Source: a virus
Taxonomy: Duplodnaviria > Caudoviricetes
DNA length: 34,476 nt
Virus record (IMG/VR): IMGVR_UViG_3300044475_000303
Coordinates: 1-34,476 of that record
Reading direction: 5' to 3' (one strand)
The position numbers and the translations under genes were made by a program. The notes below the pieces were generated by a model. It made no database searches and had not been told where the DNA came from. It was given only the letters and a program-made list of their open reading frames with translations. Positions 7,668 through 34,476 of this stretch are shown here, piece by piece (within the stretch, counting starts at the first letter, position 1; every line of letters starts with the position of its first letter).

Positions 7668-8143
7668 GACGGCTCTCCCAACTCCAACTGCGGATGGGCG
7701 TGCTGTTGCACGTTGCCCCGGTGCCAGGCCAACTCCTCAAGGGCGATCTGAACAGCTGCGAGGGCTGCGCTGGCCTCGGCGTTGTCTGCGTAGAAAGCCA
7801 TCAGTTGCCCGGTGGTTTCATGGAGTGCGGCCTGTAGCGACTGGATGTCGTGTGCAGTGGTGCTCCGACCAGATGGCACATCGATCAACAGCTTTCCGCC
7901 GTTGCCAGCCAGCCAGCGGGTCACCAGATTGATGCCGCAGGCCTGTTCGAATGCGGGGATTAGCACAGCAGGCATGCGCCCATTCGCTATCCACTTGTAA
8001 AGAGCCCAGTGATCCTCCAGGCCCATCAAGGAAGCTATGCGCTCAATGCTGTGATTGGCGCGCTCTTTGGCATGCTGCTGGCACAGCTTCAAAGCGTCAC
8101 GAAGGTTGGTTGGCTGTACCCGTTTCCACTGGCGAGGGCTCAT
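7664..8143 (-). CDS. Putative phage regulatory protein (CII-like HTH)
   Basis: Start revised to the ATG at 8143 (SD GGAGG); SIERIASLMG...LYKWIANG HTH-like segment; ATGA overlap downstream. Confidence 0.7.
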   Translation of the reverse strand: MSPRQWKRVQPTNLRDALKLCQQHAKERANHSIERIASLMGLEDHWALYKWIANGRMPAVLIPAFEQACGINLVTRWLAGNGGKLLIDVPSGRSTTAHDIQSLQAALHETTGQLMAFYADNAEASAALAAVQIALEELAWHRGNVQQHAHPQLELGEPS

Positions 8144-8263
8144 TGGAAGGCCTCCAAAGTCCGCAAGAAGTGGCCTTCCAAACAAAAAGCTGGTTTGACC
8201 ATTGGTAATGTCATTGCGCCATGCACAATGAAATCAGGTAAATTCACTGGGAAGGCAGAAGCG

Positions 8264-8545
8264 ATGGGCAATGACCTACAACGTTTGCAAGCACAAGTTG
8301 AAGCGCAGAGCGTCGTGATCGAAGCGCTGCTGCGGATCTGTGTACAATCCTGCGGAGTAGAACCATTGGCCTTGGCCGCTGAGTGGCGAGCAGTAAGGCA
8401 GAGCCCTACTTTTTTCGCGGCAGACGCGGCGGCAAAGCGGCGTCTTGCTGACGAGCTGGGTGCTTGGGCGGATATGATCATCATGCAACTTCCAGGGCCT
8501 TTGCCGGATCAGTGCAGATCTGTCCAGCCTTCAAGCCCAGCTTGA
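8264..8545 (+). CDS. Hypothetical protein antisense to the early operon (93 aa)
   Basis: ATG at 8264 with GGAAGG upstream; protein-like amphipathic helices (LQRLQAQVEAQSVVIEALLR); overlaps the 3' end of the ner-like gene. Confidence 0.5.
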   Translation: MGNDLQRLQAQVEAQSVVIEALLRICVQSCGVEPLALAAEWRAVRQSPTFFAADAAAKRRLADELGAWADMIIMQLPGPLPDQCRSVQPSSPA

Positions 8546-8705
8546 TTGCGATCTCATGGGCTTGACCGCGCACGCACTTTTTGCGGCCGCCAAGTACCTC
8601 AAACACAAGGTTTGGGGAAAACTGGTTGGCGATTGCCCACTGGGTGATCGAGACGCCCTTGGCCTTCAGCTCCGCACGGACCAGGTCGGGGGTACGTAGC
8701 TTCAT
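8481..8705 (-). CDS. Ner-like DNA-binding protein (BcepMu gp16 type)
   Basis: VRAELKAKGVSITQWAIANQFSPNLVFEVLGGRKKCVRGQAHEIAIKLGLK; first early gene, divergent from the repressor; SD AAGGAG. Confidence 0.88.
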   Translation of the reverse strand: MKLRTPDLVRAELKAKGVSITQWAIANQFSPNLVFEVLGGRKKCVRGQAHEIAIKLGLKAGQICTDPAKALEVA

Positions 8706-8786: not shown

Positions 8787-8816
8787 AATATAGGTACTCA
8801 AATGAGTACCTGTCAA
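8787..8816 (-). promoter_or_regulatory. Early sigma70 promoter with a palindromic operator in its spacer
   Basis: Minus strand TTGACA (8816-8811), 18 bp, TATATT (8792-8787); perfect inverted repeat AGGTACTCA-AA-TGAGTACCT (8792-8811). Confidence 0.8.
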
Positions 8817-8831
8817 TGGATTTGTACCTTT

Positions 8832-9257
8832 ATGGCTTCCATAGGTGATCGCCTTCGCGAAGAGCGCGAGCAGCTAGGTTTCAACCAGACAGCTTTCGGT
8901 GCGATAGGCGGCGTGCAAAAGCAGGCACAGCTCAAGTACGAGAAGGGGGAGCGGTTCCCCGGAGCAGATTATTTGGCTGCGGTGGCCAAGGTCGGTGCAG
9001 ATGTGCAGTACATCGTCACTGGCATCCGCTGCCCTAGCGCGCTATCGGATGACGAGTCCGAGCTGGTGGCTAGATTCCGTAAGGCGCCTGTTGCAGTAAA
9101 GGCATCAGCCTTGGCGGGGTTGGCTGCTGGTGGCCAACCTCTAGGCAAAGATCCGAAGCAGGTTTTCCATGGAAGTGTTGGCCAAGTAGTTGAGGGTTCC
9201 ATTACCAATGAGGCTGGCGTGTCATTCAATTTCGGGGTCAACAAGACCAAGGGGTAA
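8832..9257 (+). CDS. Prophage repressor (XRE HTH), no S24 peptidase domain, Gly/Val/Asn/Gln-rich C-tail
   Basis: IGDRLREEREQLGFNQTAFGAIGGVQKQAQLKYEKGERFP...DVQYIVTG; divergent from the ner-like gene. The start could alternatively be 8802. Confidence 0.9.
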   Translation: MASIGDRLREEREQLGFNQTAFGAIGGVQKQAQLKYEKGERFPGADYLAAVAKVGADVQYIVTGIRCPSALSDDESELVARFRKAPVAVKASALAGLAAGGQPLGKDPKQVFHGSVGQVVEGSITNEAGVSFNFGVNKTKG

Positions 9258-9261
9258 GGCC

Positions 9262-9744
9262 ATGAGTCAGGATTTCCATGGCGATGTAGGCCAAGTGGCC
9301 GGCGAAAAAATCGTCAACAAAGGGGGTAAAACCCGCCTGGAACTACATATCCAGGGAGACAACTACGGCCACATTTCAGTCGGAAGTGAGAGGAATGACG
9401 GAGATGGGTACGAACGGCCGATTCATCTATTCTCGAAACCTGAACTGTATGAGGCCTTGCGCTACTGGCGCGCTCAATGGTGGGGTGCTCATAGGGCCTA
9501 TTGGCTGAACATACCTACTGCACTTTTACTATCCATCATCGTCGGGCTGTGCTACGGCCTTCTCAACGGAGCTTTAGTGAGTTTTAGGTCCGGGCCTACT
9601 TGGGAAATAGTGATTCCATTAATGTTGGCGATGTTCGGTTGTATGGCGTGGCTGGCCAACATACGACGTGTGGAGTCCCTACTCATAGCTGAAAGCGGTA
9701 GTGCAATTGATTTCATCCAAGCGGAGCTCCGCAAGAGAAGGTAA
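9262..9744 (+). CDS. Two-TM membrane protein with an N-terminal motif shared with the repressor C-tail
   Basis: ATG 4 nt after the repressor stop; hydrophobic segments IPTALLLSIIVGLCYGLLNGALVSF and IVIPLMLAMFGCMAWLANI; visibly lower GC than the flanks. Confidence 0.8.
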   Translation: MSQDFHGDVGQVAGEKIVNKGGKTRLELHIQGDNYGHISVGSERNDGDGYERPIHLFSKPELYEALRYWRAQWWGAHRAYWLNIPTALLLSIIVGLCYGLLNGALVSFRSGPTWEIVIPLMLAMFGCMAWLANIRRVESLLIAESGSAIDFIQAELRKRR

Positions 9745-9838
9745 CCAGTCACCTTCCCACACCCTTGGCAGTGCATGTTCGGAGCAATCATGTGCTGCTT
9801 CTGGTTTAGATAGCGAATCGGTAAATATGGAGAAAGCC

Positions 9839-10237
9839 ATGTGGAAGGGGATTTTGGCTGCGGCCCTTGGGATGCTGACTGCTTGTGGTGGAGATGCACC
9901 GAAACAGCCGACTGTTTTCAATGTGCCCACTAAGGACGAACTGGTCCTGGCTTCAATTCCTGCGATCAGGCAGGCCTGCCCTGGCTTGGATAAGTACGCT
10001 GGGAGTTTCCAAGGCACTCGAGTTGAGGACCAGTTCCGAACAACTATTGTCTTCGATGTCAGTGAGCGCAACACGATCCCTGAGCCCTATAAGGCAACTG
10101 GTCACAGCTGCTTCATTGAAATCGAGAAGGATGGCAGTGCAATCCTAATCGAGAAGAAAGCTTGCAAGTCGGTCTGTCTAGATCAGTTAGACGTCCCTGA
10201 TGGGCAGCTAAAAATCTCACTAACACCGATGAAGTAG
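9839..10237 (+). CDS. Lipoprotein of unknown function (accessory)
   Basis: SD GGAG at 9829-9832; MWKGILAAALGMLTA-C lipobox; four further Cys residues. Confidence 0.8.
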   Translation: MWKGILAAALGMLTACGGDAPKQPTVFNVPTKDELVLASIPAIRQACPGLDKYAGSFQGTRVEDQFRTTIVFDVSERNTIPEPYKATGHSCFIEIEKDGSAILIEKKACKSVCLDQLDVPDGQLKISLTPMK

Positions 10238-31256: not shown

Positions 31257-32355
31257 GTTCGTGAAGATTGATCCGGCCAGCATCGAGGCTGACCTAGTCG
31301 CCCGCTATGAAGCCAAAAGTGGAAAGACCCTGTACCCGGCACAAATCGAACGTCTGTTCATTGATCAGATCGCTTACGCCAAGACACTGGCCCTGAGTGC
31401 CATACAGAACGCAGGTGAAATGCTCCTTGTGCGTTTCTCCAACGGGCCGATCCTGGATTACCTGGGCGAACTGGTCGGCACCTCACGCCTACAGGCCCAG
31501 CGTGCTCGCCATACTCAGGCATTCATCCTGCCAGCCGCCCAATCCATCCCTGTCATTATTAATGCAGGCACTCGCGTGACAACGGCCGACGGCACGCTTG
31601 CCTTCTACACCGAGTCGGCCATCCAGATCACTGCTGGCCAGCTGGAAGCCCGTGTGACAGCTATTTGTGAGACGGCCGGGACAGTGGGTAATGGCTGGTC
31701 GCTGGGCCAGGTGTCGGCGCTAGTAGCACCGCCAATGGACGGCATGACCACACGCAACGTGACTGTGCCATCAGACGGTGAGGAGCAAGAGGAGGACGAA
31801 CGTTACAAGGAGCGCATCATCCTGGCCCCCGAGGCGTATACAAATGCCGGTAGTCGAGGGGCGTATCGATATCACGCGATGTCTGTCCATCAGTCGATCA
31901 TCGATGTGGCTGTACACGGCCCTGATGATGGGCAGGAAGATGGCCATGTCGCGCTTTACGTGCTTACGGCTCAGGGTGAGCCGTCGACCGAGATGCTGCA
32001 GCTGGTGAGTGAACAAACCAGCGGCGAGAAGCGCCGACCACTGTGTGACGTAGTTCAGGTGCTTCAGCCGAACAAGGTGGAGTTCTCGATCAAGGCGCAG
32101 CTTGAGTTTTACAACGGTGCTGATAGGGCAACCGCCATGGCGGATGCCAAAGCCGCCGTCGAAACGCTGGTAGCGGAAATGCGCAACGGGCTCGGGCGAG
32201 ACATCGTACCGGAGCAGATAACGGCTGCGCTTAAGGTGGCGGGGGTTTACAGGCCGCTGGTTATAGAGCCTGCCGGCTTAACAGTGGTGGCAGGCAACGA
32301 ATGGGCATCCTGCATCACCATCGAGCTGGTAGACGCGGGGCTCGTCGATGGCTGA
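31240..32355 (+). CDS. Baseplate J-like protein
   Basis: LDYLGELVG, EEDERYKERI, AGSRGAY, RPLCDVV. Confidence 0.93.
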   Translation: MATPPEFVKIDPASIEADLVARYEAKSGKTLYPAQIERLFIDQIAYAKTLALSAIQNAGEMLLVRFSNGPILDYLGELVGTSRLQAQRARHTQAFILPAAQSIPVIINAGTRVTTADGTLAFYTESAIQITAGQLEARVTAICETAGTVGNGWSLGQVSALVAPPMDGMTTRNVTVPSDGEEQEEDERYKERIILAPEAYTNAGSRGAYRYHAMSVHQSIIDVAVHGPDDGQEDGHVALYVLTAQGEPSTEMLQLVSEQTSGEKRRPLCDVVQVLQPNKVEFSIKAQLEFYNGADRATAMADAKAAVETLVAEMRNGLGRDIVPEQITAALKVAGVYRPLVIEPAGLTVVAGNEWASCITIELVDAGLVDG

Positions 32356-32932
32356 CCTGCAGATCCCGCCTGTTCTTGCCGGTGACGAGCGATTTTCAAT
32401 GCTCCTGGAGCTGCTGCAGGACGAATTTGACCGGCTCGACCTCCAAGCAATGGCTGTGTATCTGGTCGATCAGGTCAAAACCAGCCTCTTGCCTGTGCTG
32501 GCTGATCAGTTTTCTCTTCTGGACGAAGCCGCCTGGCAACTCGCCGAGTCCGAGGAGGCGCGGCGTGATCTGGTGAAGAACGCAATCCACTTACACCGCG
32601 CGAAAGGGACGCCTTGGTCAATCCGCGAGGTCATCCGCCTACTTGGATTCGGCAAGGTGCGCATACAGGAGGGCCTATCAGGAGTTCGCCACAACGGCCA
32701 GGCAAACCGCGACGGCCGCTACGTCCATGGTGATCCCAAGGCCTGGCCGCTCTATCGCGTGTTCCTCCTGGAGCGCGCAATTACTAATGACCAGGCTGCG
32801 CTTTTGCGCCGCCTGTTGCTATCCATTGCACCTGCTCGATGCCGCCTCGTCTCGCTGGAGTATCGAGAAGTACCAATCCGCCACAACGGCCTTGCCAAAC
32901 GCGATGGCCAATACAACCACGGGAGCAGCTAA
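32348..32932 (+). CDS. Baseplate/tail protein I (P2 gpI-like)
   Basis: LPVLADQFS, AIHLHRAKGTPWSI, APARC; follows J. Confidence 0.88.
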   Translation: MADLQIPPVLAGDERFSMLLELLQDEFDRLDLQAMAVYLVDQVKTSLLPVLADQFSLLDEAAWQLAESEEARRDLVKNAIHLHRAKGTPWSIREVIRLLGFGKVRIQEGLSGVRHNGQANRDGRYVHGDPKAWPLYRVFLLERAITNDQAALLRRLLLSIAPARCRLVSLEYREVPIRHNGLAKRDGQYNHGSS

Positions 32933-34476
32933 TGGCCAACTTGCCTGAACAGGCACAATGGGAAGATGGGATCTATCAGTTGGAGACCTCGGACCCGGTG
33001 CTCGCAGGGCCTGACGGTATCGACAACCGCCAGGCTACCCAACTGGGTAACCGTACTGCCTACCTAAAAGCAGCGGTTGAGCTCCTCAAGGTGGAGTTGG
33101 CGGTACGGGACAAGAAGCCGGTGCGTGTAGTCACCACAGGGGCGATCACCCTATCTGGCTTGCAGACAGTCGATGGTATCGCATTGGTTGCTGGCGACCG
33201 TGTCTTGGTGAACAAACAGGTTAACGGCGCACAGAACTGGATCTACATCGCTGCAGCTGGCAGTTGGTCGCGCGCTCCAGACGCCGATGAAGACGCTGAA
33301 TGCACGCCTGGTCACCTTATCTTGGTGCAGTCTGGCACAGTGGGCAGCGGCTCAATCTGGCAGTTGAGTAACACGACACAACCACAGGTGGGCACCACTG
33401 CTCTGACGTTCGTCCAAGTGTTTGGCAAGATAGGGATTACAGCAGGCACCTATCGCAGCCTCACGGTCGATGCGCAGGGTCGGGTGACCGCTGGCAGCAA
33501 CCCGACCACGCTGGACGGCTACGGGCTGACCGCGCCTGTTTACGACCTGATTCGCAGCCAGATGGCAGCGTTTGGCTTGGGCTCGGCCCATACGCCGACG
33601 GTTGGCGCCGCCGCTGATTTGCCAACCCTGTTATCGGGCAATTACTACTTCGACAACCCGGCTGCCGCAGCCGTTGGTTATCCTGGCGTGATGTTTGCGA
33701 AGCGGCTGACCTTCGGTACGAATCGCGGCTTTGAGCTGGCGAATGCACCGTACGGTCGCCGCACCTTCATTCGTTACAGTAACGGCGATGGTTCTTGGGC
33801 GACTCCCGAGGAGTTGGCATTCCTCAAGAGCCCAATTTTCACCGGCATTCCAGAGGTTCCCACGGCGGGAGCGGGGACCAACACCCAGCAGGTGGCCAGT
33901 TGTGCCTTTGTGCGCGCTGAGATCGCGGCATTGGTCAATGGCGCGCCTGGAACGCTCGACCAGATCAACGAGCTGGCGGCGGCGATCGGCAACGACCCGA
34001 ACTTCGCCGTCACCATCAGCGCGCAGATTTCCACCAGGGCCGCCAAAGCCACTACGCTGGGCGGTTACGGCATTGTCGATGCTTATACCAAGACGCAGAC
34101 CGACGCGCTGATTGCCGCAGCCGTCGCCAACGGGCTGTTTGCCAAAGAGTATGTCAGTTCGCCGATGGCCTTCCCGGTCGGGGTGGTCTACACGCTCGGC
34201 CATAACTTCGGCATGCGTGCGCGCCTGGTCACGTACACGCTGAAATGCATCTCCGATGAGTGGGGCTACGTAGCGGGCGACGAAATCGACATCTCTGCGC
34301 TGCTTACTTACCCCGGCAACAATGGCGCAGACGGCTTTCAAACCAAGATGCAAGGTCTGAATGAGATCGTCGTGAAGGTCGGTGCGGGGCAAATCTTGAT
34401 CACTGACGCTGGCTCTACCGTTACGCGGGTGCTTACTCGAACAAAATGGAACGTTATCGTGAGGGCCTACGCATGA
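32932..34476 (+). CDS. Tail fibre protein (514 aa)
   Basis: Start revised to 32932 (TAATG overlap); IYQLETSDPV, LGNRTAYLK, TLSGLQTVDG, PTTLDGYG, ELAAAIGNDPNF; TGA at the window end. Confidence 0.92.
   Translation: MANLPEQAQWEDGIYQLETSDPVLAGPDGIDNRQATQLGNRTAYLKAAVELLKVELAVRDKKPVRVVTTGAITLSGLQTVDGIALVAGDRVLVNKQVNGAQNWIYIAAAGSWSRAPDADEDAECTPGHLILVQSGTVGSGSIWQLSNTTQPQVGTTALTFVQVFGKIGITAGTYRSLTVDAQGRVTAGSNPTTLDGYGLTAPVYDLIRSQMAAFGLGSAHTPTVGAAADLPTLLSGNYYFDNPAAAAVGYPGVMFAKRLTFGTNRGFELANAPYGRRTFIRYSNGDGSWATPEELAFLKSPIFTGIPEVPTAGAGTNTQQVASCAFVRAEIAALVNGAPGTLDQINELAAAIGNDPNFAVTISAQISTRAAKATTLGGYGIVDAYTKTQTDALIAAAVANGLFAKEYVSSPMAFPVGVVYTLGHNFGMRARLVTYTLKCISDEWGYVAGDEIDISALLTYPGNNGADGFQTKMQGLNEIVVKVGAGQILITDAGSTVTRVLTRTKWNVIVRAYA

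Follow-up and report, generated by a model that had tools for sequence, protein, structure and literature searches.

Bacterial amyloid-signalling pairs are the closest described counterparts of the locus analysed here. In Bell/NLR (BASS1-10) and Bab/Agp (BASS11), as in our pair, a short motif (there about 20 residues, rich in G, N, Q and V) stands at the C-terminal end of one protein and again at the N-terminal end of its neighbour, and the genes are collinear and a few bases apart. As far as the available text of the two reports goes, the N-terminal copy is carried by the receptor and the C-terminal copy by the target (10.1101/2020.01.06.895854; 10.1101/2024.11.07.622273), and Bab/Agp, too, lies in a prophage (10.1101/2024.11.07.622273). 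RHIM/PP/BASS3 and the HET-s HRAM are likewise short motifs of glycine, glutamine and beta-branched residues, unstructured until assembled. In SinR/SinI, the antagonist of an XRE repressor with a C-terminal helix pair is encoded by a neighbouring gene and is homologous to the repressor over one segment; there the shared part is helical and the antagonist soluble, whereas the pair described below has a beta-prone tail and a membrane-anchored partner. To our knowledge, the question of what induces prophages with non-self-cleaving repressors (Mu-like, many P2-like) has long been open. In function, the nearest precedent for sequestration of a repressor is Qtip, the antirepressor of vibriophage VP882, which induces by holding the repressor at the cell periphery (the poles) instead of by cleavage; production of Qtip responds to a quorum signal, its target is the DNA-binding N-terminal domain of a cI that does autocleave, and the available part of the report describes no shared motif (10.1101/2019.12.16.877910).

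The window analysed here is the whole 34,476-base contig of a transposable phage with a contractile tail, in which a transposase (phrog_310), a terminase, a head protease and a tail sheath are all detected. Its immunity region (Table 1) holds an XRE-family repressor, P0001, and, starting 4 nt after the repressor stop, the gene for a small membrane protein, P0002; a 17-residue motif is common to the repressor tail and the N-terminus of P0002. The layout is that of a BASS pair, a shared C-terminal/N-terminal motif on adjacent collinear genes. The C-terminal carrier, however, is an HTH repressor where BASS pairs have a Bell, TIR or CHAT death effector, and the N-terminal carrier is a small membrane protein where they have a NACHT, NB-ARC or TGP receptor. 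Judged on sequence, it is arranged like an amyloid-signalling pair, yet outside the BASS/RHIM families. The pairing is real, selected, widespread and apparently unpublished. A sequence-only reading of this DNA had known of no described repressor-membrane protein pair of such a kind, and none appears in the literature searched, the coverage of which is incomplete (supplementary BASS tables or the BASS11 alignment may list some). The words "repressor" and "HTH" have no occurrence in the available text of 10.1101/2020.01.06.895854 and 10.1101/2024.11.07.622273, and term look-up in PMC12261475 and PMC13506858 returns no such pair.

Table 1. Features of the immunity region, numbered from the first base of the window
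Feature	Positions	Strand	Basis
Ner/Cro-like HTH gene, first of divergent early operon	8481..8705	-	phrog_925, E 2.7e-25
Sigma-70-type promoter-like site, TTGACA-18-TATATT, toward early genes	8787..8816	-	11/12 consensus matches; consensus match only
Perfect palindrome overlapping early promoter-like site	8792..8811	no strand	one copy in window
XRE-family repressor P0001, 141 aa	8832..9257	+	phrog_8, E 1e-11; phrog_4, E 9e-10
Motif copy 1, repressor residues Q110-N126	9159..9209	+	ORF and motif match
Partner P0002, 160 aa, two predicted TM helices (~9511-9567, ~9601-9660)	9262..9744	+	hydropathy, AlphaFold2 model
Motif copy 2, partner residues Q3-N19	9268..9318	+	ORF and motif match
Second G/N-rich beta-prone stretch of P0002 (residues 26-41)	9337..9384	+	conserved in close homologues
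Predicted lipoprotein, third gene of low-GC block, no motif	9827..10237	+	phrog_10002 positions 212-325, E 4e-20

The immunity region and its repressor

Three rightward genes, for the repressor, its partner and a predicted lipoprotein (GC 57, 51 and 51%, respectively, vs 59%), diverge from a ner-like gene that has the position of B3 ORF17 and BcepMu gp16. An XRE HTH divergent from such a gene, with a putative operator over an early promoter-like site, is the arrangement of a B3/BcepMu-type immunity repressor. The palindrome in Table 1 is likely this operator: a GGTA-centred palindrome lies at the same spot upstream of related repressors, with perfect arms of at least 7 bases in 6 of the 10 checked.

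The AlphaFold2 model of P0001 consists of an HTH (residues 4-63), a helix pair (73-100) and an unstructured, low-confidence tail. The C-terminal end reads ...KQVFHGSVGQVVEGSITNEAGVSFNFGVNKTKG; after the motif come a beta-prone stretch, GVSFNFG (to 9236), and a basic C-terminal end. That the repressor lacks an S24 domain, as the sequence-only reading had it, is borne out by Pfam, where P0001 has HTH matches only, and by the AlphaFold2 model, in which no S24 peptidase domain is present; having no C-terminal S24 domain, P0001 is not a LexA/CI-type autocleaving repressor. Its best Foldseek match is the DNA-binding N-domain of P22 c2 (E 2.5e-4), and the SinR-SinI structure 1b0n comes at rank 14 in the same search. 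BcepMu gp17 is 58% identical to P0001, and RepC of Fc02, a tailless relative, is 33% identical over 93 aa. According to the available text of PMC9936078, Fc02 RepC alone confers immunity, so the tail is dispensable for repression; repressor function is demonstrated there for this distant homologue only, and by analogy P0001 is likely the immunity repressor that keeps the Mu-like phage dormant.

The lipoprotein is interchangeable cargo. Its homologues occur at 12 stored loci other than the window's, among them several copies of a single contig, and a search for longer forms of it returned none. Within the early region, an ORF at 8009-8545 (+), antisense to 8140-8484 (-), matches phrog_20710 (E 3e-33). 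It occupies the place of the olg1/gene 10 exclusion genes of Fc02, without sequence similarity to the olg1 stretch, and the window ORF 8264-8542 gives no alignment to that stretch either.

A motif shared by repressor tails and downstream proteins

The two ORFs, their peptide strings, the 4-nt gap and a match of 25 of 31 bases between 9159-9189 and 9268-9298, from which the sequence-only reading had started, were all reproduced. P0002 begins MSQDFHGDVGQVAGEKIVN...LHIQGDNYGHISVG, and the local match of its N-terminus to the repressor tail (BLOSUM62 score 54) exceeds all 200 shuffles (z ~6). Over the rest of their length, which had been called unrelated, the two proteins differ in family and fold by profile matches and models. 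Of all the window's 31-mer pairs with a spacing of 31-2000 bases, only 32685/32877 also reaches 25/31. A direct repeat at 32685-32910 in the tail region (192 bases apart, 26/31 identical) covers the end of ORF 32348-32932 and the start of ORF 32839-34476.

Run against PDB sequences, profiles of the tail and of the N-terminus matched nothing relevant. Both motif copies have low confidence in the AlphaFold2 monomer models, as would be expected if they fold only on assembly; an ESMFold2 complex of three tails and one partner N-terminus scores 0.02, a value outside the calibration of the tool. The likeness to BASS, RHIM and HET-s motifs that had been proposed does not amount to membership. Neither motif fragment has an HRAM or other Pfam match at E<=10, and the RHIM/PP/BASS3 signature G-phi-Q-phi-G is found in 0 of 57 motif copies. 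Where the HET-s HRAM has two 21-residue pseudo-repeats, the internal repeat of P0002 (the weak similarity of its residues 26-41 to the motif) scores only 16. A lead only, taken by eye from the Bab residues that 10.1101/2024.11.07.622273 names, is that Bab G88, S89, V90, Q92 and N100 are spaced as repressor G114, S115, V116, Q118 and N126, which puts 5 of the 7 Bab residues compared (I87-V90, Q92, D99, N100) in register with the repressor tail; I87 and D99 have no match there.

Four scans, two of them contributing their best 80 each, yielded at least 194 loci. The loci listed, together with the window, hold 127 distinct repressor ends, 85 of phage type (84 with a downstream ORF) and 42 controls, the latter being a tailless chromosomal HTH gene of pseudomonads upstream of a gacA-like response regulator. 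A locus is positive if the tail, compared to the first 60 residues of the next protein, scores above all 200 shuffles. Among the loci listed, this holds for 52 of 84 phage-type loci vs 3 of 42 controls, and the 52 fall into 23 clusters at 55% identity; motif pairs, matching within the pair, recur in at least five non-redundant loci, as BASS pairs do. The 32 misses include partners overlooked by the ORF rule or of weak-scoring subtypes (L132, L151, L180, the Pasteurellaceae type) and one locus, L194, whose first partner is frameshifted and second partner intact; orphan tails with no adjacent partner are seen in L008-L011, L150 and L160, and the remaining misses have neither motif copy. As to the controls, the tailless repressor relative found directly upstream of the gacA-like gene (L128, L131, L133 and 39 more, in Pseudomonas putida-group genomes) is possibly a domesticated phage repressor.

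A motif HMM trained on the same loci, which tells where else the motif lies and not that it exists, was run over 13,849 six-frame segments from 131 regions. It matches only repressor C-termini and the N-terminal parts of downstream same-strand ORFs, and it has no match in any of the 42 controls. Ten loci carry two or three motif-bearing partners, the second and third lying 0.3-1.6 kb downstream behind unrelated genes. The same pairing of repressor tail and membrane protein occurs in cultivated transposable and P2-like phages (B3 ORF18/ORF20, BcepMu gp17/gp18, phiE202 gp21/gp22), where the partners are annotated as hypothetical or membrane proteins and the records name no function or motif.

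Since ranking on loci chosen for their cognate match is biased, we rely on an unselected repeat that takes all 84 listed phage-type loci, which form 44 groups at 55%. The score is 36.8 for cognate vs 23.4 for non-cognate pairs (permutation p 5e-5), and the cognate partner comes first for 10 of the 44 tails and within the top three for 17. With presence defined only through non-cognate matches, 29 groups have both copies, 5 the tail only, 2 the head only and 8 neither (Fisher p 2.5e-4). Co-occurrence and co-variation in homologous loci, which the sequence-only reading had proposed as its check, are therefore both seen. Within pairs, the rungs also tend to be of equal length: an ungapped block of at least 14 residues joins 16 of 23 cognate vs 183 of 506 non-cognate pairs, the cognate set being pre-selected for similarity. 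By eye, the subtypes read F-H-G-x-V-G-Q, N-R-x-A-G-R-D and I-x-G-x-N-N-x-Q. One-residue insertions are present on both sides in L046, L051 and L112, and L023 has a subtype mismatch between its copies. To judge from the alignments, B3 is the clearest case of a subtype changing jointly on both proteins: ORF20, a P0002 homologue of 29% identity, combines the 2-TM body with the N-R/I-x-A-G-R-D-F subtype, and the tail of its own repressor, ORF18, matches it. In the B3-like phage Fc02 the repressor is tailless and the downstream gene has no motif.

A tree-based independent-pairs test, made with crude regex labels for subtype, rests on 4 supported pairs when scored for presence (median p 0.5) and on 1 when scored for subtype, and cannot separate co-evolution from co-inheritance. 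About 110 bases separate the motif of the first partner from the tail, and the two move together; this linkage is a partial explanation for the co-presence of the copies, not for their likeness. Both copies could instead be read by one protease, adaptor or chaperone, of host or phage, the two proteins never touching. Terminal position and disorder would suit a degron or chaperone tag, and orphan tails persist, as they would under such a scheme. It is quite improbable all the same: joint divergence of the subtypes would not be tolerated by a host factor, the subtypes differ between B3 and FHG-type phages of pseudomonads, and no third phage gene accompanies every pair.

Close spacing and 25/31 DNA identity would also be left by duplication or conversion at the gene junction, or by a DNA recombination tag, with no function at the protein level. 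Synonymous positions speak to this. Over 22 cognate pairs, 36 of 111 aligned codons agree at fourfold-degenerate third positions (28% expected, p 0.29), and for twofold sites the count is 67 of 105 (54% expected, p 0.06); the window alone has 1 of 5 and 4 of 5, respectively. Because the fourfold sites are saturated, the motif match is no recent DNA copy, and a recent duplication or recombination tag, either of which would have kept these sites, is disfavoured; the slightly elevated twofold sites make some shared DNA ancestry or conversion possible. Such a by-product would also have to account for second and third carriers far downstream, and for a motif that sits on two HTH families and 25 clusters of partner bodies. 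It is already largely refuted, and we give it very little credence. Together with the recurrence in phage-type loci and the cognate scores, the codon comparison shows that protein-level selection maintains the motif match.

A programmed fusion of repressor and partner, by read-through or by frameshift, was considered and rejected, as the offsets vary across reading frames and none is fixed. One family, phrog_17822, joins an HTH part (matching P0001 3-84) and a soluble partner body; a search for longer fused repressor-partner forms returned one unfused protein only.

Motif carriers and the bodies of the partners

A 29-position profile of the window's subtype, run at E<=0.001 against 1.84 billion proteins, matches 101 of them, 33 at the C-terminus, 66 at the N-terminus and 2 internally. 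Among the 33 C-terminal carriers, 29 have an HTH match, the profiles being those of the XRE and Phage_CI_repr families, and 55 of the 59 N-terminal carriers of at least 100 aa have a predicted TM segment by a crude hydropathy rule. Nearly all partners have only the motif and a membrane anchor in common, and the C-terminal carriers only that they are repressors. NACHT, NB-ARC, TIR, CHAT and S24 domains are absent from the 48 of these 101 proteins that were scanned; no Bell domain was found there, and neither an NLR (NACHT/NB-ARC) nor a TPR-GreA/B-PIN receptor in 32 locus partners (Pfam) or in the 13 of 66 N-terminal carriers scanned.

The 111 partner bodies form 25 clusters. The largest (53 bodies, mostly single-TM or tail-anchored) includes the Flk_N-like proteins (atlas score 0.95), the second (26) is the 2-TM family of the window, and the third (8) combines a zinc-ribbon-like Cys pattern with TM helices; soluble carriers are few (P0019, P0114, L183). 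Flk (Fluke) of Salmonella is, in the available text of PMC13344023, cytoplasmic, its membrane anchor lying at the C-terminus, and acts on flagellar secretion. Twenty-one of 30 bodies of the commonest type match the Flk model NF007987 at E<=1e-3 (best 4e-18), at 18-66 bits and over the N-terminal ~130 profile positions only, far below the equivalog cut-off of 353 bits; P0002 has no match and stands outside this family. The commonest body is also weakly like the C-terminal regions of antirepressors (4/32). Flk may share ancestry with the motif-bearing phage partners, given these profile matches and the C-terminal anchor on both sides. The Flk-matching partners are L031:2918-3505, L038:2882-3508 and 19 others, and P0054; the atlas clusters of this commonest family also carry ORF6C.

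Two rarer carriers bear on what the motif can do. P0016 (71 aa, one of the 66 N-terminal carriers) consists of the motif and a copy of the repressor helix pair, with no HTH, as expected of a SinI-like antagonist; it is a candidate dominant-negative antirepressor and could also be a fragment. P0089, one of the two internal matches, has its copy inside a GIN-domain protein, a family of beta-helical build, and the motif can thus serve as one ordinary rung of a solenoid. P0089 would fit a small, defined beta-zipper that holds the repressor at the membrane and tunes its free level or stability, perhaps with operator-bound prophage DNA held there too, and that forms no switch-like polymer. All the co-variation and membrane-anchor evidence fits such a tether equally well. 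It leaves unexplained why both sides have the same sequence and matched length, the mark of in-register stacking, and why there are several partners per operon, and we consider it unlikely.

P0002 itself has hydrophobic segments at about residues 82-102 and 114-134; both hydropathy and the AlphaFold2 model predict the 2-TM protein that the sequence-only reading had called. In the model, 50 low-confidence residues precede a long helical hairpin with both segments, which gives a predicted layout of unstructured N-terminus, helix, two TM helices with a short loop (~10 periplasmic residues) and C-terminal helix; both ends are likely cytoplasmic, to go by charge and the absence of a signal peptide. 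P0002 has no match in Pfam, NCBIfam or PADLOC (the last at E<=0.01), and its fold finds no significant match in BFVD and generic helical hairpins only in the PDB. Its Foldseek SLATT rows have E 0.9-1.0, its VIA rows are generic coiled coils (Z<=9.4), and its best atlas score, 0.88, is to unnamed clusters.

A small 2-TM helical hairpin, which is what P0002 is predicted to be, is the build of several known defence effectors. The motif might thus link the repressor to an abortive-infection effector that the repressor tail caps or nucleates: loss or aggregation of the repressor on superinfection would let the 2-TM protein polymerise and damage the membrane. The co-variation data fit this guard arrangement equally well, and P0002 lies in the low-GC block behind the repressor, a block where relatives have SLATT-like genes (BcepMu gp19, NF033632 E 1e-4). 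Bab/Agp, moreover, is a case of amyloid-gated membrane killing in a prophage hotspot, according to the available text of 10.1101/2024.11.07.622273. The polarity, however, would be opposite to that of Bab/Agp and Bell/NLR, bodies of the largest cluster are mostly single-TM or tail-anchored, some carriers are soluble, and P0002 matches no PADLOC model. On this evidence an effector role is rather unlikely; were it true, the pair would be a new repressor-guarded defence system. The SLATT-like gene recurs in the block behind the repressor, at L196:3938-4474 (the BcepMu gp19 gene) and, alike by eye, in L001, L020 and L194, and it is often preceded by a short acidic ORF.

Proposed capture of the repressor at the membrane

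The sequence-only reading had the motif couple the repressor to a membrane protein. This coupling is likely because the two motif copies are conserved, occur together, vary jointly and are maintained at the protein level; an assignment to the BASS, RHIM or HRAM families is not supported. Direct contact between repressor and partner is very probable. That both sides carry the same motif, matched in length, suggests that the copies stack in register, and we lean toward cross-beta stacking rather than a simple strand zipper. A signal that runs from the membrane protein to the repressor is, on balance, the better guess: if the polarity of known amyloid pairs is taken as a guide, the receptors would be the membrane proteins, which are variable and multi-copy, and the target the single repressor.

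Our preferred reading, to which we give a probability of roughly 40%, is that the partners act as sensors in the membrane, capturing and inactivating the repressor and so inducing the prophage independently of RecA. The motif copies of partner and repressor would stack as matched beta-strands into a predicted amyloid-like polymer; a cue from the envelope or from infection would cluster the membrane partner, and the clustered partner would pull the repressor off its operator, with induction requiring neither RecA nor the usual DNA-damage signal. Both this capture and the effector role had been offered by the sequence-only reading, and we rank capture only modestly above the other. It is favoured by the commonest body, which usually has one tail anchor and would be a poor design for a pore, and by P0016, in which motif and helix pair occur without the HTH; it would also be relevant to a prophage whose repressor has no autocleavage route.

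Several results count against capture. The ~10-residue periplasmic loop of P0002 offers scant space for a sensor, fewer than a quarter of the tails have their cognate partner at rank one, and some tails are orphans. The tree test is uninformative and the two copies are closely linked, and in Fc02 immunity does without the tail. The available text of PMC9936078 has repc-e4 of Fc02 co-expressed in the lysogen; if the window's pair behaves alike, a brake that keeps repressor and partner apart would be required.

A stronger version, in which S24-less repressors of temperate phages form a widespread class switched off by amyloid templating from arrays of interchangeable motif-tagged membrane sensors, is doubtful. 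If true, it would allow induction that is RecA-independent, possibly heritable and able to cross between phages, and it would be the first amyloid signal to target a virus's transcriptional switch. Short of templating, the motif pair is a concrete candidate for an inducer route, a 17-residue tag on the repressor together with swappable membrane proteins, and B3, which is in cultivation and can be grown on the laboratory strain PAO1, has it. Should the tag be amyloid, amyloid signalling would extend from cell-death effectors to the lysis-lysogeny switch. Either reading, capture or effector, gives a role to the large unannotated phage families phrog_5825, 6521 and 17537, and matched motif pairs would be orthogonal parts.

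The four orphan repressors of L008-L011 (3001-3405; 2914-3318 in L008) have the canonical tail and no partner within the fetched flanks. Their tails might respond to the partners of other prophages.
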